The notes under the pieces were generated by a model. It did not search any database. It had not been told where the DNA came from and saw only the letters and a program-made list of their open reading frames with translations. Of a stretch of DNA of 64,000 bases, positions 5,654-62,582 are shown in pieces. The position numbers and the translations under genes were made by a program. The stretch's first letter is position 1. Every line of letters begins with the position of its first letter. The stretch is taken from IMG/VR virus record IMGVR_UViG_3300019888_000005, positions 2,759 through 66,758 of that record. One strand, written 5' to 3'. The stretch is from a virus.

Positions 5654-5659
5654 TATAAT
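5654..5659 (+). promoter_or_regulatory. -10 box for a leaderless HNH transcript
   Basis: TATAAT 5 nt before ATG 5665, no SD. Confidence 0.5.
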
Positions 5660-5664
5660 TGATC

Positions 5665-6234
5665 ATGAGCAAGTGTGCTGAGGGGTGTACGTGCGGACAC
5701 CACTCCAGAAGAGATTTCAAGAAGTGTGAGCCAGGGTGTACCTGCGCAAGGCACGAACAGACGGAGGAGCATCGCCGTAAGAATTCCGAAGCGAATAAGG
5801 GCCGCAAGATGCCCCCCGAGGCTGTCGCTAGGCGAACAGAGACCAAGAGAGCGCGCGGAGATTTCTCTCCCGAGCGAATGGCGGTAGCGCAAGAAGGGCG
5901 GCGGCGCGCGCTTGCTCAAGGTCTGATCACCACAGGGCGCTATGTGGATGGACGGTCACGGCACCCTTCCTATGAGCGTTGGTACAACATGGTTCAGCGT
6001 TGCACCAATCCCGAGGATGCGAGTTGGAATCGGTACGGAGCGAGGGGCATCAAGGTCTGTAACGAGTGGCTTGATCCGCTTGTTTTTTATCACTATCTCG
6101 ATACGGTGCTTGGTCCGTGCCCCGAGAAGTATTCCATTGATCGGATCGACAATGATGGTGATTACGAGCCAGGGAATATCAGATGGGCTACGGCACGTGA
6201 GCAGGTATTGAACCGGAGAAATTCACGTACTTGA
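5665..6234 (+). CDS. HNH endonuclease with N-terminal KCxxGCTCxxH repeats
   Basis: W..MVQRC.N....W.RYGARGIKVC..W...F, SIDRIDNDGDYEPGNIRWAT..EQ..N. Confidence 0.85.
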   Translation: MSKCAEGCTCGHHSRRDFKKCEPGCTCARHEQTEEHRRKNSEANKGRKMPPEAVARRTETKRARGDFSPERMAVAQEGRRRALAQGLITTGRYVDGRSRHPSYERWYNMVQRCTNPEDASWNRYGARGIKVCNEWLDPLVFYHYLDTVLGPCPEKYSIDRIDNDGDYEPGNIRWATAREQVLNRRNSRT

Positions 6235-38414: not shown

Positions 38415-38445
38415 GTAACATTTTTTAAACTTGGGCGTATATAGT
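38415..38445 (+). promoter_or_regulatory. GTAAC-N17 promoter copy
   Basis: GTAACA...GTATATAGT, intergenic. Confidence 0.7.
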
Positions 38446-53520: not shown

Positions 53521-53851
53521 CCTGATGAGGATCGGAACTGTCCAGAGGAGGACCCACCCATGCCCGGACAGAAGATGTCCCATGCCGATGCCGTTGCGGT
53601 AGCGATGCAACACATCATGCACCAGAACACCTACGAGAGTACCTACGAGGCTGCCGTGTCGTTCGCAAAGTCTCGCGCCGAGAACATGGTGGTCGTGGAG
53701 CATTTCGCGGAACGGTTTGCGATCAGGCATCACGAATATCTATGGGGACCAGCAGATCTGGATAAGGCGTGGGGTGAACAGCAACGGGCAGTGTTCTCCA
53801 TCGCAGGCGTACGGAATCCGAGGGATTAAATATCTCGTAATCCGTAAATCC

Positions 53852-53881
53852 GTAACATTTTTTATACTGTCCCGATATACT
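53852..53881 (+). promoter_or_regulatory. GTAAC-N17 promoter copy upstream of the ardC-like gene and polysaccharide operon
   Basis: GTAACA...CGATATACT. Confidence 0.72.
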
Positions 53882-53929
53882 AAGCAAGAGGTTCACACGG
53901 AACCCCAATCAGCCCCACGGAGGCAATTG

Positions 53930-54890
53930 ATGGCCACGTCCACATCACAGACTCGCAAGCCGGTGTCCGAAGCTGAGCGCGAGCGTCGATCCACTGCTCG
54001 CAAGGCGCAAGCCGAAGCAATGCAGGCGTCCCTCGCCACTCAGGTCGAGGCAATGGCGTCGGGCGAGCAGTGGAAGGCGTTTCTCGACCACGCGCAATCG
54101 TTCCACAAATACAGTTTCTCCAACATGATGTTGATCTTGGCTCAACATCCCACCGCGACGAAGGTCGCCGGGTTCGACGACGAAGGTCGCCGGGTTCGAC
54201 CAGTGGTGTGCGAAGGGTCGAGTTCCGCGCAAGGGGGAGAAGGGGATCAAGATCTACGGCTACTCCGTCAAGAAGACCACCGACGAGGTGACGGGCAAGG
54301 AGAAGCGCGAAGTCTACTACCCGCTGTGGACCGTCTTTGCGCAGGACCAGACGGTCGAGTTCGAGGGTGACGAGATCAAGCTCGGGAACAAGACGATCAA
54401 GGTGAAACACCGCGAATCCGAGCATCCCGCCAGGTTGCTGGAGGGCGAGGACACCGCACAGATCGGCCAGCGGGTCATCAAGTACGTCATAGGTCACGGC
54501 TGGAACTTCGAGTTCGAGGATATTGCCGGATCGTCCAACGGCTACACCACCCAGGACGGCTCCAAGCGCGTCGTGGTGGACATCAAGCTCAGCCCGATCA
54601 TGGCGGTCAAGACGAGTTTGCACGAGGCAGCGCACATGCTGCTGCACACCTCCGAGGAGGGCATGAAGACTCTCCGCGATACCGCCGAGTTGGAGGCCGA
54701 GAGTGTGGCCTACATCGTGGGCGGATTGCTGGGACTGGACACCACCGACTACAGCATCGGTTATCTCACCGGCTGGGCGGAAGGTGACGGCGAGGCTGTC
54801 AAGGCCACTGCCACTCGTGTGCTCAAGACGGCACACATCATCATCGAGGCGCTCGACCCGAGCACCCCGGAAGCAGAAGAGAAGGAATGA
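53930..54890 (+). pseudogene. ArdC-like antirestriction protein (ssDNA-binding + zincin HExxH), frameshifted by a 22-bp duplication
   Basis: FH.YSF.N..LI..Q.P.AT.VAGF..W...GR...KGEKGI after removing one repeat unit; HEAAH and ELEAESVAY in the C-terminal half. Confidence 0.8.
54157..54200 (+). repeat. Perfect 22-bp tandem duplication
   Basis: GACGAAGGTCGCCGGGTTCGAC x2. Confidence 0.95.
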
Positions 54891-55111
54891 TGATCTTCAC
54901 CAAGACATCCGTGTTCAGCGGGAAGGCCAACTCGATGGAGTTGCCGATCACGGAACAGCAGTACGACGAGTGGATGGCGTATCCCCGCCATGAACGTCCA
55001 TTCGTGCAGCACAGCTTTCCGCAGCTCAATCCCGAGCAGCGGGAGTTTCTCATCAACGGCGTCACGCCTGATGAGTGGTTGGAAGCATTCGGAACCGAGG
55101 AGGACAGCTGA
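54887..55111 (+). CDS. Conserved small phage protein
   Basis: VQ..FP.L..EQREFL.NG.TP.EW. Confidence 0.65.
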   Translation: MMIFTKTSVFSGKANSMELPITEQQYDEWMAYPRHERPFVQHSFPQLNPEQREFLINGVTPDEWLEAFGTEEDS

Positions 55112-55410
55112 TGGGCGGTCAAGAGTTCTACGAGATGGCTACGGGAGCGTCGATGGGGGAGGCATTCACCAAGGCTTTCGACCAGGCGCAGTGGGAGTAC
55201 GGCCACGGTGGCTACACCGGCAGCATTGCCGAGAAGCCCGGAGCGCATCTCCTTCAGCGCGAAGAATTACCGGACGAGAAGGCTGCGATGGTGGTAGCCG
55301 AGAAGATGTTGCGGGGCGACGATCCGATAGCCAACGACAAGTGGGGCCCAGCGGCGTGCCTGTCGATCCAGGGTGGTAAGTGGTTGTTCTTCGGGGTGGC
55401 GTCATCGTGA
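55111..55410 (+). CDS. Conserved small phage protein
   Basis: A.WEYGHGGYTGSIAEK...KWGPA; GAGGAGG SD. Confidence 0.65.
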   Translation: MGGQEFYEMATGASMGEAFTKAFDQAQWEYGHGGYTGSIAEKPGAHLLQREELPDEKAAMVVAEKMLRGDDPIANDKWGPAACLSIQGGKWLFFGVASS

Positions 55411-56720
55411 CTGAGATGATGGTCGAGGTGATGGTCGAGGAGGATGTACTCCTCCCGCTTCGTGGGCAGACGGTTGTCGTGGTGGGGATGGGTTACGTGG
55501 GCTTGCCCACGGCGCTGTCTCTGGTGAGCAAGGGTGCGCGAGTGATGGGGCTCGACGCCAGTGCCGCTCGACTGCGCAATATTCACCATGGCAGCGTCGA
55601 TCTCTCGGCGCGGGACATGGAACGGCTGCGTCAGTATCGCTCCGGGGCTCAACTGGACTTGTCGGAGGACCCCGAGGTGCTCTCCGATGCGGATTACGTC
55701 GTGATCTGTGTCCCGACTCCGGTGGACGATTACCAGGCCCCGGACCTCGCGGCGCTTCAGGGTGCCTGCGACAGCGTAGTGGAGCGAGCGAAGGCGGGGC
55801 AGACGATCATCCTGACCTCGACCACCTATGTGGGGTGCACGCGCAAGATGTTGGTCGAGCCGCTTGCGGCACGCGGTCTGGTTGCGGGACAGGACATCTC
55901 GGTCGTCTTCAGTCCCGAGCGCATCAATCCTGGTGTCGCAGACCACATGCCGGAGCTGACGCCTCGTGTGGTGGGTGGCACGACCGCCAACTGCCTGTTG
56001 GCGGGACAGGAGTTTCTGTCTCATATATCCAGCACGGTGCATGTGGTGACGTCGCTGGAGACAGCCGAGATGACCAAGCTCATGGAGAACACCTTTCGGG
56101 CGGTCAACATCGCATTGGCCAACGAATTCTCCGATGTAGCCAACGAGCTGGGTGTGGACATTGTGGAGGCGGTCGATGCTGCTGCCACCAAGCCGTACGG
56201 GTTCATGGCGTTCTACCCCGGAGCCGGGGTGGGTGGGCATTGCATTCCGTGTGATCCGCACTATCTGCTGTGGCAGCTTCGTGGGCGGCGCGTCATCGCT
56301 CCGGTGATCCAGTCGGCCATGGAAGCCATCTCGGTGCGTCCTCGTCGGGTGGTGGAGCGTGCCCGGATGGTGCTGGGTGAGTCCGGTCGTACTCTGGCGA
56401 ACGCTCGTGTGCTGGTGGTGGGCGTGACGTACAAACCAGGGGTGGCAGATGTGCGGGAATCTCCGGCACTGGAAATCATCGACGGGCTGATGCACCTCGG
56501 GGCCAAGGTGTCCTACGTGGACCCCTTCGTTCCTGCGTTGGATACTCCGCTCGGAGGACGCTTGCTCAGTCAGACGAACGCGGATCAGTTCGCGAAGATT
56601 TGGGACTTGGTGATTGTGCACACTGTGCACCCCGGACAGGATTACGGGTGGCTGGAAAACAGCTTTGCCGTACTGGACACGACCTACCGTTTGGACTTCC
56701 CGAACCGGCACGTGCTGTGA
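55407..56720 (+). CDS. Nucleotide-sugar 6-dehydrogenase (UDP-N-acetylhexosamine dehydrogenase, WbpA/WecC/TviB-like)
   Basis: GMGYVG, ICVPTP, FSPERINPG, AEMTKLMENTFRAVNIALANE, GVGGHCIP.DP, YKPGVADVRESP. Confidence 0.93.
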   Translation: MTEMMVEVMVEEDVLLPLRGQTVVVVGMGYVGLPTALSLVSKGARVMGLDASAARLRNIHHGSVDLSARDMERLRQYRSGAQLDLSEDPEVLSDADYVVICVPTPVDDYQAPDLAALQGACDSVVERAKAGQTIILTSTTYVGCTRKMLVEPLAARGLVAGQDISVVFSPERINPGVADHMPELTPRVVGGTTANCLLAGQEFLSHISSTVHVVTSLETAEMTKLMENTFRAVNIALANEFSDVANELGVDIVEAVDAAATKPYGFMAFYPGAGVGGHCIPCDPHYLLWQLRGRRVIAPVIQSAMEAISVRPRRVVERARMVLGESGRTLANARVLVVGVTYKPGVADVRESPALEIIDGLMHLGAKVSYVDPFVPALDTPLGGRLLSQTNADQFAKIWDLVIVHTVHPGQDYGWLENSFAVLDTTYRLDFPNRHVL

Positions 56721-58063
56721 TTGCGATGCTCGCTTCGGCGAGAAACGGTGTGCGGGAAAGTCCTGTATCTCGTTCCGGGAGAAGCACTTTCCAAGTGGTG
56801 CTGTTGTGCATCTTCGGTGTCGTGGTCATTGGGATCATCGTGCTGAAGGTTTACACCTACTCCAACTTGGTGAAGGACCCCATATTCGCCGTCTACAGCG
56901 TGACGATCACCACGTTCATTCTCTCTCGTTTCGGGTTGGGATGGCTGTACCTGCGTGCCCGCTCCAGGATTGTGACGGGGGAGGCAGCAGAACAGCTCTA
57001 CTACGAGCCGACAGTGGCGATCATCGTTCCCGCCTACAACGAGCCGGACATCGCTGCCACCATCAGGGCGTGCGTGAGTGTCGATTACCCCAAGGGCAAG
57101 CTGAAAGTGGTTGTGGTGGACGACAAGTCCACCGACAACACCCTGGAGCTGATTTATCGAGCGCAGATCGACCTCGAAGACGACGAGTTCATTACAGTGA
57201 TCCCGTTGGTCGTCAACGGGGGCAAGCGGCACGCCCTGGCGGCGGGGTATGCGGCACTGGAACCTGAGGATGGGGAAATCTGCGTCTTTATCGACTCCGA
57301 CAGCCAGGTGACTGCGGAGGGCGTCACCAAGTTGGTGGCATACTTCCGCGATGCCACGGTTGGGGCCGTAGCGGGCCATACGGACGTGGCAAACCGCCAG
57401 ACGAACATCCTCACGCGGATGCAGGCCATGCAGTACTACATCGCCTTTCGGATCTACAAATCAGCCGAGGCGCTGTTCGGGTGTGTCACGTGTTGCTCGG
57501 GATGTTTCTCGGGGTATCGCCGGAGTGCGTTGGAGCCGATTCTCGACCCCTGGTTGAAGCAGAGCTTCTGCGGGATGTTGAGCACCTACGGGGACGACCG
57601 GAGCTTGACGAACTTCCTGCTGCCCGATTGGCGGATTCTGTATGCCCCGGACGCTCAGGCATACACGAACGTGCCCGAACATCTGAGGCAACTGCTCAAG
57701 CAACAACTGCGGTGGAAGAAGAGCTGGTTGCGGGAGTGCACTCGTGCCGCGAAGGTGATGTGGCGCAAGCACCCGATCATGGTGGCGTTGTTCTATCTCG
57801 GGTTCATTCTGCCGCTGCTTGCTCCGCAGGTCGTTTTCCGAGCCATGGTAGTGCAGCCGTATTTCATCAACGAATTGCCGGTCTGGTATTTCGGTGGAGT
57901 GGCTGCGATGGCGGTCATGTACGGGATCTATTACCGCGCGCATCAAAGCGAAAAGCGTTGGTATCAAGGAATTTTCTTCACTCTGTTCTATACAGTCATT
58001 CTCGTCTGGCAACTGCCCTACGCAATGGCCACCATCCGGGATTCGAAATGGGGGACTCGCTGA
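56717..58063 (+). CDS. Processive membrane GT2 polysaccharide synthase (hyaluronan synthase/NodC-like)
   Basis: 2 N-terminal TMs, VPAYNE, DDKSTD, GKRHA, DSDS, CCSGC...YR, GDDRSLTN, QQLRWKKSW, C-terminal TMs, WGTR. Confidence 0.93.
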   Translation: MIAMLASARNGVRESPVSRSGRSTFQVVLLCIFGVVVIGIIVLKVYTYSNLVKDPIFAVYSVTITTFILSRFGLGWLYLRARSRIVTGEAAEQLYYEPTVAIIVPAYNEPDIAATIRACVSVDYPKGKLKVVVVDDKSTDNTLELIYRAQIDLEDDEFITVIPLVVNGGKRHALAAGYAALEPEDGEICVFIDSDSQVTAEGVTKLVAYFRDATVGAVAGHTDVANRQTNILTRMQAMQYYIAFRIYKSAEALFGCVTCCSGCFSGYRRSALEPILDPWLKQSFCGMLSTYGDDRSLTNFLLPDWRILYAPDAQAYTNVPEHLRQLLKQQLRWKKSWLRECTRAAKVMWRKHPIMVALFYLGFILPLLAPQVVFRAMVVQPYFINELPVWYFGGVAAMAVMYGIYYRAHQSEKRWYQGIFFTLFYTVILVWQLPYAMATIRDSKWGTR

Positions 58064-59667
58064 TGTTCGGAATGCGTTTGAAATCATTACGACGACGGAC
58101 TGTGGTGTTCGTCGTGTCGGCGTCGACAACCGTCATGGTGTTGAGCCTGGTCGTGCTGTATCTTCTCGTGCCGGGGTCGTGGCAATGGAATCATGCAGCG
58201 GCCAGAGTCAATACGATCAGATCCAACGTCGTGGAGCAGGTCGTTGCCGTCACTCCCGCCACTTCATCGCAAGCATTGGTCGATCGACTCAAGACAGCGA
58301 GCACCAGCTCGCAGAGTGCGCCGATCATCTTGACCTATCACGACGTCGGCTATCGGCAGAACGACTACACGGTCACTCCCGAGGTGTTCGCCGCACAGAT
58401 GAAGTTGCTCGCGGACGGTGGGTGGTCCACGCTGACTGCCGATCAGCTCTCCGCGTGGCTCAAGGGCACCCCGTTGCCACCACACAGTGTGATGATCACG
58501 TTCGACGACGGTGTGCGGGGGGTGTGGAAGTATGCGGACAACATTCTTGCTGCCAACCATCAGCACGCGATTGCGTACATCATCACCGGGTTCGTGGGGA
58601 CGAATGTGCCCTACTACATGACATGGGAAGAGATTCAGGCACTTCAGAAGTCGGGTCGATGGGACATCGAGGCTCACACCCACCTCGGTCACGTGAACAT
58701 CAAGACGGACGAGAACGGTACACCGGGGCCGTTTCTGACCAGTCTGCAATGGCTTCCGGATCAACACAGGATGGAAACTGCTGACGAATACCATGTGCGT
58801 ATTCTCGGCGACTTGGTGGAGTGCAAGAGACAGCTTGTCGATCACGGCATTCCGTCTCCGAACTTCTTCGCCTATCCGTACTCGGCGCACACCGATGCAC
58901 CGTCTGGCACCAACTTGTTGAGGGATACGGTGGGTTCGTTGTTCCAGGCAGCGATGCTCGACCAGGCAGGTTCTGTCTCTACCACCACCACTACCAATCT
59001 CAGCGATTTCAATATCGGTCGTATGGATATCACGAGCAAGGTCTCTCTGGAGACGTGGGTGAATTATCTGCGTGATGCCAGTCCGTTGAATCCGGTTGGC
59101 TTGCGTCCGTTCGCAATGGCAGGTGACTGGATCACCGACGACGACCGATTCAAGGCCCAGTTACCCATCGAGAATCCCGATCAGGTGCTGCGGCTCGATC
59201 CTGGTCCGCACGCCTATACGGGGCGCATCTTCGCTCGGTTCCGCAGCAGTATGTGGAACACCTACACGGTGAGCGTGAGGGTCGGCGGGTTCGTCGCACC
59301 AGCAGACGGGATGACGGTGGGACTGATTGCCCTGTCGGGTAATTGGGACAATCAGGTGGATGTCACGATCAGCGACGGTTACTTCCAGGTTCGTCGGGGG
59401 ATGGACAAGAACAACATCGTCACCACCGGGAATCTCGCCCCGGACAGTGCTTACACTGTCGTCATCGCAGTACATCCCGAGGGCGTCACAGTGGCTGTTG
59501 GTGGACGGCAGGTGTACGCCTTCGTCATACCTCCGGTCAGCTTGGACGTGTCGGTTGCTGCGCCCAACAGCCCGCGCGCCGTTGCGGGTGGTATCGAACT
59601 CAGCGCCAACCGAGAGTTCGAAACCAGTCCCGTACCTCAGTTCAGTGATCTCAAGGTGGATAAATGA
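58063..59667 (+). CDS. Membrane-anchored polysaccharide deacetylase (CE4, PgaB/IcaB-like) with C-terminal beta-sandwich
   Basis: N-terminal TM; ILTYHDV, ITFDDG, HTHLGH, FAYPY. Confidence 0.88.
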   Translation: MFGMRLKSLRRRTVVFVVSASTTVMVLSLVVLYLLVPGSWQWNHAAARVNTIRSNVVEQVVAVTPATSSQALVDRLKTASTSSQSAPIILTYHDVGYRQNDYTVTPEVFAAQMKLLADGGWSTLTADQLSAWLKGTPLPPHSVMITFDDGVRGVWKYADNILAANHQHAIAYIITGFVGTNVPYYMTWEEIQALQKSGRWDIEAHTHLGHVNIKTDENGTPGPFLTSLQWLPDQHRMETADEYHVRILGDLVECKRQLVDHGIPSPNFFAYPYSAHTDAPSGTNLLRDTVGSLFQAAMLDQAGSVSTTTTTNLSDFNIGRMDITSKVSLETWVNYLRDASPLNPVGLRPFAMAGDWITDDDRFKAQLPIENPDQVLRLDPGPHAYTGRIFARFRSSMWNTYTVSVRVGGFVAPADGMTVGLIALSGNWDNQVDVTISDGYFQVRRGMDKNNIVTTGNLAPDSAYTVVIAVHPEGVTVAVGGRQVYAFVIPPVSLDVSVAAPNSPRAVAGGIELSANREFETSPVPQFSDLKVDK

Positions 59668-60416
59668 TCTTACGTGCCCTGGTCGCAAGTGCAGCGATGC
59701 TCGCCGTTGCGGGTGGATGCACTGAATCTCCGGTACAGGTGACACCCACCGCGTTCGTCCCGTTGTCCGACAATTTCCACGGGCCCGACGAGTTGATCCT
59801 GTCGGAGTTCAACCACCCCGACACGGTGGCGCAGCGGGACGACAACTGGGACGTGACGAGTGGATCGTTGTATCGCTCCAACGACACCGGGTGGACGGGG
59901 CGACTGGACAAGAGGTCCAAGATGGCGACCGATTCGCAGGTGTTCCGCATGGTGTCCGTGCGGCGGGATTTCGGCGATGTGACCATGTCCTTGCGGTTGC
60001 GCGTGAACGACATGGTGGAGAGTAACGGCACTCCGGCACAGGATTTCGATGGCGCTCATATCTGGCTGCGCTATACAGGTGAAACGTCGTTGTACGCGAT
60101 CTCGGTGGACCGTCGAGACGGAGCGATGGTCATCAAGAAGAAATGCGTGGGGGGTACGGACAACGGCGGTACTTACTATGATCTCGTTCCGTTGAACACC
60201 GATAATCCCATCCGAATGGGCCAGTGGGAAAGTATCGTGGCGACGGTGAGGAACATGCCGGACGGCACCGTGAAGGTCACTGGTGATCGAGACGGTACGC
60301 ATGTCGAGGCGGTGGACAGCGGTCAGGGGTGTGCCCCCATCACAGGCACTGGTGGCGTGGGCATTCGCGGCGACAATGCCGAATTGCAGTTCACCGATAT
60401 CGAGGTCGGGCAATGA
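59664..60416 (+). CDS. Lipoprotein with concanavalin/lectin-like beta-sandwich (paralog 1)
   Basis: Signal peptide with LAVAGGC lipobox-like motif; W.VTSGSL, DGAHIW, GIRGDN. Confidence 0.7.
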   Translation: MILRALVASAAMLAVAGGCTESPVQVTPTAFVPLSDNFHGPDELILSEFNHPDTVAQRDDNWDVTSGSLYRSNDTGWTGRLDKRSKMATDSQVFRMVSVRRDFGDVTMSLRLRVNDMVESNGTPAQDFDGAHIWLRYTGETSLYAISVDRRDGAMVIKKKCVGGTDNGGTYYDLVPLNTDNPIRMGQWESIVATVRNMPDGTVKVTGDRDGTHVEAVDSGQGCAPITGTGGVGIRGDNAELQFTDIEVGQ

Positions 60417-61177
60417 GTTGGTGGCACCCCGTCAAGCCGAGCCCTGCTCCGGTTTCCGCTCCGATCCCGATGACACAAGGAAGCGATCCCATGACAAGCA
60501 CACTGCTCACAGATTCGTTCGTCGGGCCGGATGGATTCATCTGTTCCGAGACGCATCAAGCACCCCCCGGCTCGCTGTGGGTGCTGACCAGTGGTTCGCT
60601 GTTCCGAAGCAACAACGAGGGGTGGACGGGGAAACCGAACACCGGAAACCCTCCGGACAGCGGCAGCACACCGACAGGGGTCACGGACTCGTCCATCTTT
60701 CGAATGACCACTGCCGCAACCAATTTCGGCAACGTCGACATCTCGCTGTTTCTGCGGGTAGACGCTTTCGTCAGCGACAGCCAGACTCCAGCGGTTCCTT
60801 GGGACGGTGCGCACATCTGGGTTCGGCATCAGTCGCCGTTCCAGCTCTATGCGGTCAGCGTATGTCGTCGAGACGGCACGATGATCATCAAGAAGAAGAT
60901 CAAGGGAGGTCCCGATCCCAGTGCTGGGGGCACCTATTACGATCTCAGTCCGTCTGTTGGCCCTGCGCCTGTGGTGCTCGGCAAGTGGATGCATGTCGTG
61001 GTGTCCGTTCGCGATCTTGCCGATGGCAGCGTGTCGATCACTGCCGTGCGTGACGGCTACAAGGTGTCCGCCGTGGACAAGGGAACTGGCGCGCCTCCTC
61101 TTCGAGGCAGCGCGGCCTTCGGGATTCGGGGCGACAACGTGGAACTCCGTTTCGCCTCGGTCGGGGTTCAGGGCTGA
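60413..61177 (+). CDS. Lectin-like beta-sandwich protein (paralog 2, no obvious signal peptide)
   Basis: Aligns end to end with paralog 1 (GWTG, FRM, DGAHIW, RRDG.M.IKKK, GGTYYDL, GIRGDN). Confidence 0.7.
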   Translation: MSWWHPVKPSPAPVSAPIPMTQGSDPMTSTLLTDSFVGPDGFICSETHQAPPGSLWVLTSGSLFRSNNEGWTGKPNTGNPPDSGSTPTGVTDSSIFRMTTAATNFGNVDISLFLRVDAFVSDSQTPAVPWDGAHIWVRHQSPFQLYAVSVCRRDGTMIIKKKIKGGPDPSAGGTYYDLSPSVGPAPVVLGKWMHVVVSVRDLADGSVSITAVRDGYKVSAVDKGTGAPPLRGSAAFGIRGDNVELRFASVGVQG

Positions 61178-61189
61178 TGATCTGATCCG

Positions 61190-61219
61190 GTAACGCTTCT
61201 CCGAGTATCTCGATATATT
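61190..61219 (+). promoter_or_regulatory. GTAAC-N17 promoter copy
   Basis: GTAACG...CGATATATT. Confidence 0.72.
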
Positions 61220-61266
61220 AAAAGAGACACACTGTCCGTGAAGAACTCCCACGAAGAGGTGAAGAG

Positions 61267-61914
61267 ATGACCGACGCGCGCGTATCGCTTTACGATCTCA
61301 TGCAGGTAGACCTGCCCGAGGGCCGATCCGGGGATGTCGCCGTCGAGCGGTTCGAGATCACCGAGCGCGAGATTGCGATCACGTCGATGCGGGACGGTAG
61401 TCGGGGATACACCCCACCGGGGACCTACACCCGGCTTACCCGCAGGCACGGACTGTGGATGAGCGATACGCACGCGGAGCGCCGGGATCACTTGGAGCCG
61501 CTGTGGAAGGCCCGGCGTCTCTCATCGGGGTTCAAGGTTCTGGTGACGGGACTGGGGCTCGGCATGGTGGTGCGGGCGATGATCCTAGGGACCGACGTGG
61601 GGCACATCGACGTCGTGGAGATCGACCCGGACGTCGTCGCACTGGTGGGTCCCTATTACGAGAAGCTGGCAGCCGAGCACGGCAAGACTCTCACGATCCA
61701 CCTGGGTGACGCCTTCGATCGCAAGGTGTTGTTCGGCCCGAACGATTACTGGGACATCGCCTGGCACGACATCTGGCAGGACCTGTGTCTCGACAACTTG
61801 ACCGGGATGGGGAGTCTTGCGCGCCGATACACCAGATTCGTTGGGTGGCAAGGATTCTGGGGTAAGGAATTTCTCCACCGCGAGCGAGCGAGACAGGGGG
61901 TGTGGTATCGGTGA
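61267..61914 (+). CDS. Class I SAM-dependent methyltransferase (spermidine-synthase-like fold)
   Basis: WMSDT..E, VLVTGLGLG, VVEIDPDV, GDAF, WDIAWHDIW. Confidence 0.8.
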   Translation: MTDARVSLYDLMQVDLPEGRSGDVAVERFEITEREIAITSMRDGSRGYTPPGTYTRLTRRHGLWMSDTHAERRDHLEPLWKARRLSSGFKVLVTGLGLGMVVRAMILGTDVGHIDVVEIDPDVVALVGPYYEKLAAEHGKTLTIHLGDAFDRKVLFGPNDYWDIAWHDIWQDLCLDNLTGMGSLARRYTRFVGWQGFWGKEFLHRERARQGVWYR

Positions 61915-62126
61915 CCGCGGGAGTGGTGGAGCTGTGCAAGAACGGGCTTCATCCCTGGATGCCCGAGAATATGATTTTTGTTCGTCACGAAAGTGGACGA
62001 ACAGGACGAACCTGCTTGGCGTGCCGAAGGGCATCGCGTCGGCAGTGGGAACTACGTAATCGCTGGAAGCGACAAGAACGTGACCGGCAACGTAGTGCCC
62101 ATCGAAGTAGAGAAACTCGGACGTGA
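61911..62126 (+). CDS. Stand-alone HNH-tail-type zinc finger
   Basis: CKNGLH...EN.........TCLACRR. Confidence 0.55.
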   Translation: MTAGVVELCKNGLHPWMPENMIFVRHESGRTGRTCLACRRASRRQWELRNRWKRQERDRQRSAHRSRETRT

Positions 62127-62168
62127 GTGCGTTCGAGTCAGGCAATATCTATCACAAGGGAAAACACT

Positions 62169-62582
62169 TTGAGTATCAAATCTGTCACCATCGCCGCCTT
62201 GGCCGTTGGTGCCGTATCCATCAGCTCTGCTGGACTCGCTCACGCCGACGTAACACCGGGGCCGCAACCTGTCTCTCCGGCGTTGCACGCGGTAGCGAGC
62301 AATGCGGAGAACAACGATGCGCTGAGTGCCTTCAGTACGTCCTTCGGTCTTGCGGTTGCGGTGGGTGGATTCATCGGTACGGGGATAGGGGCCGGTATCG
62401 GGTGTATTGCCGGGTTGCCTGCAGCGGGAATCGGATGTATTCCCGGAGCGCTCGTGGGCGCGCCCATCGGTGCTCTGATCGGCACTCTGGTCATCGGAGG
62501 TCCGGTGTTGATCGGTACGGGAATTGATTACGTGAACACTCTCAACGCGGCACCTGGTACCAGTCGTTGGGCCGACAACTGA
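62169..62582 (+). CDS. Secreted glycine-zipper protein 1
   Basis: TTG start after AAGGG; Sec signal ending AHA; GxxxG repeats with a Cys pair. Confidence 0.75.
   Translation: MSIKSVTIAALAVGAVSISSAGLAHADVTPGPQPVSPALHAVASNAENNDALSAFSTSFGLAVAVGGFIGTGIGAGIGCIAGLPAAGIGCIPGALVGAPIGALIGTLVIGGPVLIGTGIDYVNTLNAAPGTSRWADN

Follow-up and report, generated by a model that had tools for sequence, protein, structure and literature searches.

A phage-borne five-gene cassette resembling a bacterial synthase-dependent exopolysaccharide operon

Introduction

Can a bacteriophage provide the cell that it infects with an entire pathway for the synthesis, export and modification of a polysaccharide? To our knowledge, the synthesis of whole extracellular polysaccharides by viruses is established for algal giant viruses, while for bacteriophages the known cases are modifications of existing glycans. 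The question is raised by the IMG/VR virus record IMGVR_UViG_3300019888_000005, a 66,758-bp contig of which bases 2759-66758 form the 64,000-nt stretch analysed here (the window; all coordinates are positions in it). At 55407-61177, on the plus strand, the window holds a cassette of five genes, g1 to g5, which an initial annotation made from the sequence alone had described as an operon for surface-polysaccharide synthesis and modification. According to our comparisons, the phage did not invent the cassette but captured it from bacteria, in which an operon of four such genes is conserved, and the contig that bears it is a fragment of a Finch/Stormageddon-like myovirus from a soil metagenome. 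We consider it probable that the copy is functional and expressed during infection, and that a large actinobacterial myovirus, probably lytic, has in this way acquired a synthase-dependent exopolysaccharide operon of bacterial origin.

Results

The five genes lie at exactly the positions first proposed, and stop and start codons overlap at every junction, including the one with the phage gene upstream. The overlaps are GTGA at 55407-55410 between the upstream phage gene and g1, GTGA at 56717-56720 between g1 and g2, TGATG at 58061-58065 between g2 and g3, ATGA at 59664-59667 between g3 and g4, and ATGA at 60413-60416 between g4 and g5; g3 has an alternative start, the ATG at 58048, which is the start of a 539-aa database copy. 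By its anatomy, the cassette is a complete synthase-dependent polysaccharide module, with a precursor enzyme (g1), a polymerase-exporter (g2), an extracytoplasmic modifier (g3) and two proteins for binding or trimming the polymer (g4 and g5).

The 448-aa product of g2 (56717-58063, plus strand) is a processive membrane GT2 synthase of the hyaluronan-synthase/NodC/chitin-synthase class, with matches to GT2 and Chitin_synth_2 in Pfam, and its best relatives of solved structure are Xenopus HAS1 (8smm, E 2.9e-32) and the chlorovirus hyaluronan synthase (7sp7, E 1.6e-28). The stretches FIDSDS, GDDRSLTN, QQLRWKKSW and a C-terminal WGTR can be seen in the translation as well as in the alignments to 8smm and 7sp7 (residues 161-448), and hydrophobic segments are present at residues 27-45, 356-374 and 419-437. 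g2 thus has the membrane helices and the DxD, GDDRxLTN, QxxRW(xKS) and WGTR motifs of class I hyaluronan synthases, and the hyaluronan-synthase-type motifs named in the initial annotation are indeed there. Among NCBIfam models the best match is NodC (TIGR04242; 201.8 bits, below the cut-off of 550), which covers profile positions 31-394 of 395, while the PgaC/IcaA model (TIGR03937) gives 117.2 bits against a cut-off of 422.3. About 2,000 homologues were found, many of them bearing the automatic JGI name "hyaluronan synthase", and the closest, at 59-69% identity, come from Smaragdicoccus, Mycolicibacterium, Rhodococcus, Gordonia and M. smegmatis. In an alignment of 23 GT2 sequences, g2 keeps all 82 columns that are invariant across the homologues.

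The g1 product (55407-56720, plus strand, 437 aa) is a nicotinamide adenine dinucleotide (NAD)-dependent nucleotide-sugar 6-dehydrogenase, as had been recognized; it belongs to TIGR03026 (378.2 bits, cut-off 189.8) and has the three-domain UDPG_MGDP_dh architecture, with PF03721, PF00984 and PF03720 all above cut-off. Its likely substrate differs from that suggested by the earlier analogy with chlorovirus PBCV-1, in which a hyaluronan synthase is accompanied by a UDP-glucose dehydrogenase. Two WecC models score 212 and 208 bits and TviB 173, versus 117-137 bits for UDP-glucose dehydrogenase models (TuaD 117), and in the PDB, Cap5O (3ojl) reaches 190 bits and a P. horikoshii enzyme 181, versus 102 for the UDP-glucose dehydrogenase 2y0e; none of the equivalog models WecC, TviB, TuaD and AglM attains its own cut-off. 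By these scores g1 is of the UDP-N-acetylhexosamine type (WecC/Cap5O/TviB-like), nearer to dehydrogenases of UDP-N-acetylmannosamine (UDP-ManNAc) and UDP-N-acetylglucosamine (UDP-GlcNAc) than to those of UDP-glucose, and thus is not the UDP-glucose 6-dehydrogenase that partners a class I hyaluronan synthase. The PBCV-1 analogy is therefore inexact. We favour UDP-GlcNAc over UDP-ManNAc as the substrate, with UDP-N-acetylglucosaminuronic acid (UDP-GlcNAcA) as the most likely product, because PF02350 (UDP-GlcNAc 2-epimerase) has no match in three of five genomes with the cluster, some of which may be incomplete, and because the conserved four-gene unit contains no such epimerase.

The third gene, g3 (58063-59667, plus strand, 534 aa), encodes a CE4 de-N-acetylase (PF01522, 54 bits, cut-off 23.1) which, as initially proposed, is membrane-anchored, namely by a single N-terminal hydrophobic helix; the CE4 domain (residues ~89-340) is followed by an all-beta jelly roll of concanavalin A (ConA)-like type (residues ~350-534). 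The catalytic domain is closest to PgaB, BpsB and IcaB (Foldseek to PgaB, 4f9j, E 1.3e-17; phmmer to BpsB, 4e-14), and its TFDDG and HxHxxH stretches align to those of BpsB. All 47 columns invariant among 29 CE4 sequences are kept, including D148, D149, H205 and H210, so that the Asp-Asp and His...His signature of NodB homology in PgaB/IcaB-type enzymes is present, while the score against the PgaB equivalog TIGR03938 is 101.7, below its cut-off of 321.9. According to a structure model (pLDDT 88.6), residues 350-534 resemble CBM66 and lectin folds and not the C-terminal glycoside-hydrolase domain of PgaB. This is the third jelly-roll domain of the cassette and had escaped the initial annotation; hhalign compares it to g4/g5 with a probability of 15% (E 0.0017), which does not establish homology.

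The two lectin-fold paralogues described earlier are g4 (59664-60416, plus strand, 250 aa) and g5 (60413-61177, plus strand, 254 aa), which share 46% identity over 225 residues (E 4e-67) and have no match in Pfam, PHROG or NCBIfam. An AlphaFold model of g4 (pLDDT 87.9) is a ConA-like jelly roll whose matches in Foldseek and VIA-align, at Z 12.7-17.8, are all alike and comprise lectins, CBM66, GH16, PL-family lyases and heads of actinophage tail fibres, so that lectin and enzyme are not separable by fold; among the actinophage tail proteins are the Douge baseplate protein (Z 16.1) and TM4 gp23 (Z 16.0), together with those of GurgleFerb and ReqiPepy6. The bacterial operon described below has an orthologue of g4 as its fourth gene. 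g4 may also be a distant relative of PF06439 (3-keto-disaccharide hydrolase/DUF1080): 8 of 30 members of the jelly-roll family match this model at E<=1 (best 1e-05), structural neighbours in the Atlas carry PF06439, and the DUF1080 structure 3hbk is matched at Z 13.4. A hydrophobic, often lipobox-like N-terminal segment occurs in about 24 of the 28 bacterial homologues aligned, and g4, a lipoprotein-type protein, has one that ends in LAVAGGC (AGGC lipobox). By comparison, g5 lacks a signal peptide, a feature that the initial annotation had not noted. Both proteins keep all 24 columns invariant in the alignment of 30 family sequences. In the tree, the two proteins occupy basal positions in the actinobacterial clade and are not resolved as sisters, with an 85/86 fork parting g4 from the rest; the second jelly-roll gene may have arisen by duplication inside the phage.

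Where the cassette came from is indicated by the comparison of seven bacterial loci (L001-L007). The dehydrogenase, GT2 and CE4 genes are colinear in five of them (L001-L005, from Rhodococcus, M. stellerae (Mycolicibacterium), a Mycobacterium metagenome-assembled genome (MAG), Arthrobacter and a Pseudonocardiaceae MAG), and in four of these five a jelly-roll gene adjoins. L006, a Patescibacteria MAG, has GT2, CE4 and a weak jelly-roll match, and L007 has a dehydrogenase gene on the other strand, a GT2 gene and a distant CE4 gene. The flanking genes vary among the loci and include GGDEF-EAL, glmS, sigma and anti-sigma genes and a Wzx-like flippase gene, and so the four genes form a conserved unit. 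Identities between the phage proteins and those of the bacterial operon are 52-60% for the dehydrogenase, 59-66% for GT2, 44-54% for CE4 and 45-55% for the jelly roll. In a tree of 23 sequences the phage GT2 is sister to that of Smaragdicoccus (100/99) inside a Mycobacteriales group (93/89), on a branch of ordinary length (0.44, median 0.40). At 62-69% identity, even the nearest bacterial protein is too distant for the capture to be recent.

The phage copy thus shares its four gene types with a chromosomal operon of Mycobacteriales, Pseudonocardiales and Micrococcales, in the same order as in L001 and L003, and differs from it in several respects. It is fused into a phage operon; its G+C content has shifted to the phage level (0.594, versus 0.587 in the rest of the window and 0.60-0.67 in the bacterial clusters); its jelly-roll gene is present twice, with the second copy lacking the signal peptide; and it is without the bacterial neighbours GGDEF-EAL and glmS. 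In the Rhodococcus sp. locus a 1335-aa GGDEF-EAL protein is encoded directly 3' of the operon (L001:11736-15743), and in the Mycobacterium MAG glmS lies directly 5' of the dehydrogenase gene (L003:14-1654). These neighbours hint at control by cyclic di-GMP and at a supply of UDP-GlcNAc for the native operon.

That the cassette is phage-borne, as had been claimed, is supported by its surroundings. PHROG matches across the window, all on the plus strand, include a virion structural protein, a 1218-aa minor tail protein, DnaB, a primase, a DnaE-like polymerase, a recombinase and an endolysin; an HNH endonuclease gene (5659-6234; phrog_374, E 2.1e-36) lies directly 3' of the tail protein gene. Among named phages, the closest are Rhodococcus phage Finch (138.9 kb), the Gordonia phages Stormageddon and RedWattleHog (~136 kb) and cluster-C-type mycobacteriophages, and the 99-aa gene coupled to g1 (55111-55410, plus strand) has homologues in Finch (gp194), Stormageddon (gp166) and RedWattleHog (gp165) at 44.7-47% identity (E 1e-19 to 4e-18). 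Finch is described as a predicted-lytic myovirus with nearly all genes pointing rightward and a ~40-kb array of small genes (PMC13313380), a layout that the right half of the window resembles; the cassette is placed within this array of small rightward genes of the phage. At the homologous places in Finch and Stormageddon the cassette is absent, and only small hypothetical genes follow the homologues of the flanking genes. No terminase, portal or capsid gene was seen in the window. A recorded contig of 145,249 bp encodes proteins identical to g2, g3 and g4, and the Finch-like relatives measure 136-139 kb, which makes it probable that the 66.8-kb contig is incomplete and covers less than half of the phage genome.

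The same stretch is present in two runs (X1 and X2) of one soil-metagenome sample, probably the source sample; no RNA data set was listed as containing it. Logan contigs span 53800-56935 and 56951-62300 in X1, and 53800-56415, 56417-59568 and 59676-62300 in X2; they bridge both 55407 and 61177 at an even depth of 7.6-8.9, with no loose ends at the cassette borders, which, together with the matching G+C content, weakens the concern that the contig is chimeric. At 54156-54199 a 22-nt unit is repeated perfectly in tandem, and this duplication splits the metallopeptidase-domain gene at 53717-54890 (plus strand; a homologue of Stormageddon gp198, 51% identity) into the frames 53717-54370 and 54288-54890. 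The Logan contigs of both runs have a single copy and one continuous frame, so that the duplication either arose in the assembly or belongs to a minority of the phage population.

The cassette had also been described as bracketed by GTAAC promoter motifs. The pattern GTAAC-N15-21-TATA occurs seven times on the plus strand of the window and once on the minus strand, compared with 0.65 on average, and never more than 3, in 200 shuffles, and motifs do stand on both sides, namely GTAACA-18 nt-TATACT at 53852-53881 and GTAACG-17/18 nt-ATATATT at 61190-61221 (both plus strand). The upstream motif, the nearest one before the cassette, is 1.55 kb away from g1, with three phage genes in between: the metallopeptidase-domain gene, a 74-aa open reading frame at 54887-55111 (plus strand; its start overlaps the previous stop in ATGA and its stop the next start in TGATG) and the 99-aa gene coupled to g1. 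A search between 53852 and 55407 found no promoter motif, and a lone GTAAC at 60022, within g4, has no -10 partner. Since the start of g1 overlaps the stop of the phage gene and the nearest upstream motif is the one at 53852, the cassette is the distal part of a longer phage operon, and the bracketing holds in this looser sense. The cassette does not have the make-up of a phage moron, in the sense of an independent unit with its own promoter and terminator: no motif occurs in that interval, the start of g1 is coupled to the phage gene before it, and the stretch from g5 to the motif at 61190 has no terminator-like site.

The downstream motif begins 12 nt past the stop codon of g5. Behind it, directly after the cassette, lies a methyltransferase gene (61267-61914; phrog_15480, E 1.9e-48, with a weak spermidine-synthase-like Pfam match), which has this promoter motif to itself; homologues of the gene occur in phages of Microbacterium and Gordonia but in neither Finch nor Stormageddon. 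More widely, a promoter-like family of the form GTAAC(G/A)-~17 nt-(G)ATATAnT is found at 38415, 39466, 46431, 47569, 52669, 52983, 53852 and 61190, always on the plus strand and between genes of the small-gene array. At every site a CCCACGA/CCACGG element follows ~45-60 nt downstream, directly 5' of the ribosome-binding site; this element may be a shared leader or regulatory sequence. The motif looks like host sigma-70-type promoters and would fit transcription by the host polymerase.

The initial annotation knew of no characterised equivalent in actinophages, and our searches agree. Megablast of 55000-61300 against phages, in a collection that may lack close records, gave no match, and tblastn against 50,697 phage records returned ten records for GT2, none with at least 80% coverage (best, 32.9% identity over 35% of the query), and ten for CE4, likewise none covering at least 80%. 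Pattern scans of IMG/VR, which use short peptide patterns and can miss distant relatives, yielded 4 matches for the single GT2 sequence, 87 for the GT2 alignment, 195 for the CE4 alignment and 35 for the jelly-roll alignment, with none confirmed in any of the four. Nor was a phage-encoded synthase of this kind found among the titles listed by literature searches outside subscription journals. Records of 100-300 kb filed as Staphylococcus and Acinetobacter phages (OR844989.1, CAKLQH020000004.1 and relatives) contain ica/pga-like synthase, deacetylase and dehydrogenase genes and look like bacterial chromosome. The pga/ica-bearing records, of Acinetobacter phage MD-2021a and Staphylococcus phage SA 1306 Kay, were not counted as equivalents.

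Among known systems, chloroviruses are alike in being lytic viruses with a class I hyaluronan- or chitin-synthase-type enzyme and a sugar-nucleotide dehydrogenase, and their hyaluronan synthase is among the best solved matches of g2. The PBCV-1 type pairs this synthase with a UDP-glucose dehydrogenase and GFAT, while the CV class adds a deacetylase. In chloroviruses and fungi, the gene for a CV-class chitin synthase stands in one cluster with those for a UDP-GlcNAc 6-dehydrogenase and a polysaccharide deacetylase (PMC5122149, PMC7053769). This cluster, and not the PBCV-1 pair of hyaluronan synthase and UDP-glucose dehydrogenase, is the closer viral parallel; its dehydrogenase is likened to g1 by type. 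In contrast to these eukaryotic algal viruses and fungi, the present cassette is found in a bacteriophage, as one coupled operon of bacterial origin to which jelly-roll genes are added. The poly-N-acetylglucosamine systems (pgaABCD, icaADBC) likewise combine a GT2 synthase with a CE4 de-N-acetylase that acts on the exported chain, in keeping with the similarity of g3 to PgaB, BpsB and IcaB; unlike them, the cassette has no PgaD/IcaD, porin or GH153 domain, possesses a dehydrogenase, and has a synthase with a PgaC/IcaA score far below the cut-off (117 versus 422). Seroconverting phages of the GtrABC type also alter the surface glycan of the host, and phrog_841 ("GtrB-like") is a weak partial match to g2 (E 2e-11). 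They modify an existing polymer from a prophage, whereas the cassette comprises a whole pathway of synthesis, export and modification in what is probably a lytic phage.

Discussion

Taken together, the observations behind the initial annotation stand, with refinements as to what type of dehydrogenase g1 is, where the upstream promoter motif lies and how many jelly-roll domains there are (three), while its interpretation, a secreted uronic-acid-containing and partly deacetylated glycan, is supported in part. The retention of the family-invariant residues in GT2 (82 columns), CE4 (47) and the jelly-roll proteins (24) argues for function. We suggest that the cassette would be transcribed as the tail of the phage operon from the sigma-70-like promoter at 53852 and translated by stop/start coupling. 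g1 would oxidise a UDP-N-acetylhexosamine, most likely UDP-GlcNAc, to its uronic acid, and g2 would polymerise UDP-GlcNAc, probably together with the g1 product, and thread the chain through its own membrane channel. Anchored outside by its single helix, g3 might strip some of the N-acetyl groups and hold the chain by its jelly roll, and the g4 lipoprotein might bind or trim the polymer at the surface, while g5, lacking an export signal, could act in the cytoplasm or after lysis. The polymer is thus likely to be GlcNAc-based, with an N-acetylhexosaminuronic acid and with partial de-N-acetylation by g3; a neutral product akin to chitin or chitosan may also be considered, and simple hyaluronan is a less likely outcome. 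As a net result, an amino-sugar polymer, acidic and partly cationic, would cover the infected cell. If chloroviruses and surface-masking phage genes are a guide, such a coat might stop competing phages or the phage's own progeny from adsorbing to doomed cells, or else protect or aggregate the infected cells. Exclusion in the style of lysogenic conversion would not be an obvious frame, because Finch, the nearest named relative, is predicted to be lytic (PMC13313380).

Several points weigh against this reading. The cassette is found in one phage only, from one soil sample, and the contig covers part of that phage's genome; host and lifestyle are deduced from relatives. The sequencing runs that bridge the junctions come from the probable source sample and so test the assembler without being independent of the reads. 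The equivalog models all score below their cut-offs for the cassette proteins, and the branches of g4 (0.64) and g5 (0.89) are long compared with a median of 0.32, which could mean relaxed constraint. Lastly, literature searches outside subscription journals gave no known product of the actinobacterial operon in any organism, and for this reason the substrates and the polymer proposed here are guesses.

Among the alternatives, the cassette might be passenger DNA, that is, a host operon recently picked up, with no role in the phage and heading for decay. The single phage carrier, the absence from Finch and Stormageddon, and the long branches of g4 and g5 would fit this, as would the location among small genes, which turn over fast according to one report (PMC13313380). 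We nevertheless find it unlikely, as all five frames are open with every family-invariant residue retained, the junctions have been tightened to overlaps of 1-4 nt, one of them with a phage gene, the G+C content fits the phage and not the bacterial clusters, an additional paralogue is present, and the distance to the nearest bacterial protein speaks against a recent capture.

A true hyaluronan system, in which g2 alternates glucuronic acid (GlcA) and GlcNAc while g1 or a host enzyme supplies UDP-GlcA for a PBCV-1-like coat, draws on the solved relatives of g2, with which it has GDDRxLTN, QQxRWxKSW and WGTR in common, and on the automatic label borne by many of its homologues. Set against these are the higher score of the NodC model over the full length of g2 and the profile and structure scores of g1, in which the UDP-ManNAc dehydrogenase models (208-212 bits), TviB and Cap5O all exceed the UDP-glucose enzymes. 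In addition, the CE4 enzyme is a conserved member of the operon, and we know of no deacetylase in hyaluronan systems. On balance, such a system is quite improbable.

Glycosylation of the virion, with the enzymes decorating capsid or tail proteins, has in its favour that the relatives of the phage group with cluster C mycobacteriophages, that glycosyltransferase-bearing actinophages with glycosylated virions have been reported (PMC13313380), and that g4 has a fold like the carbohydrate-binding heads of actinophage tail proteins. We regard it as very improbable, given that g2 is of the integral-membrane, channel-forming synthase type and not a soluble protein glycosyltransferase, that g3 has a membrane anchor and g4 an export signal, and that the four gene types are orthologous to a chromosomal bacterial operon and not to tail genes. 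Finally, an assembly chimera of bacterial DNA and phage contig, for which the metagenomic source and the 22-nt duplication 1.25 kb upstream, a sign that the assembly is not flawless, might be cited, is scarcely credible in view of the contigs from both runs that cross the junctions, the codon overlap with the phage gene at 55407, the phage promoter motif 12 nt after g5, and the identical proteins on a contig of Finch-like size.

Returning to the captured and functional exopolysaccharide operon, one might go further and speculate that the phage, a lytic actinophage of soil, remodels the host envelope during infection with an acidic, partly de-acetylated poly-N-acetylhexosamine, as a bacteriophage equivalent of the hyaluronan/chitin coat of chloroviruses, and that the jelly-roll gene was duplicated in the phage into a signal-less form whose product, released at lysis, binds or cuts this polymer. 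The progeny would thereby escape trapping on coated cells or debris, and competitors would be kept out. This scenario is tentative and, taken as a whole, doubtful.

Virus-encoded synthesis of surface polysaccharides is already known, and what is added here is a captured bacterial operon in a bacteriophage. If functional, it would show phages to be able to equip an infected cell with an entire synthase-dependent exopolysaccharide pathway, with a bearing on superinfection exclusion, receptor masking and the formation of biofilms and soil aggregates. In addition, the cassette represents a compact, promoter-free handle of five genes on an operon family that is widespread and occurs in Mycobacteriales, including strains of M. 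smegmatis.

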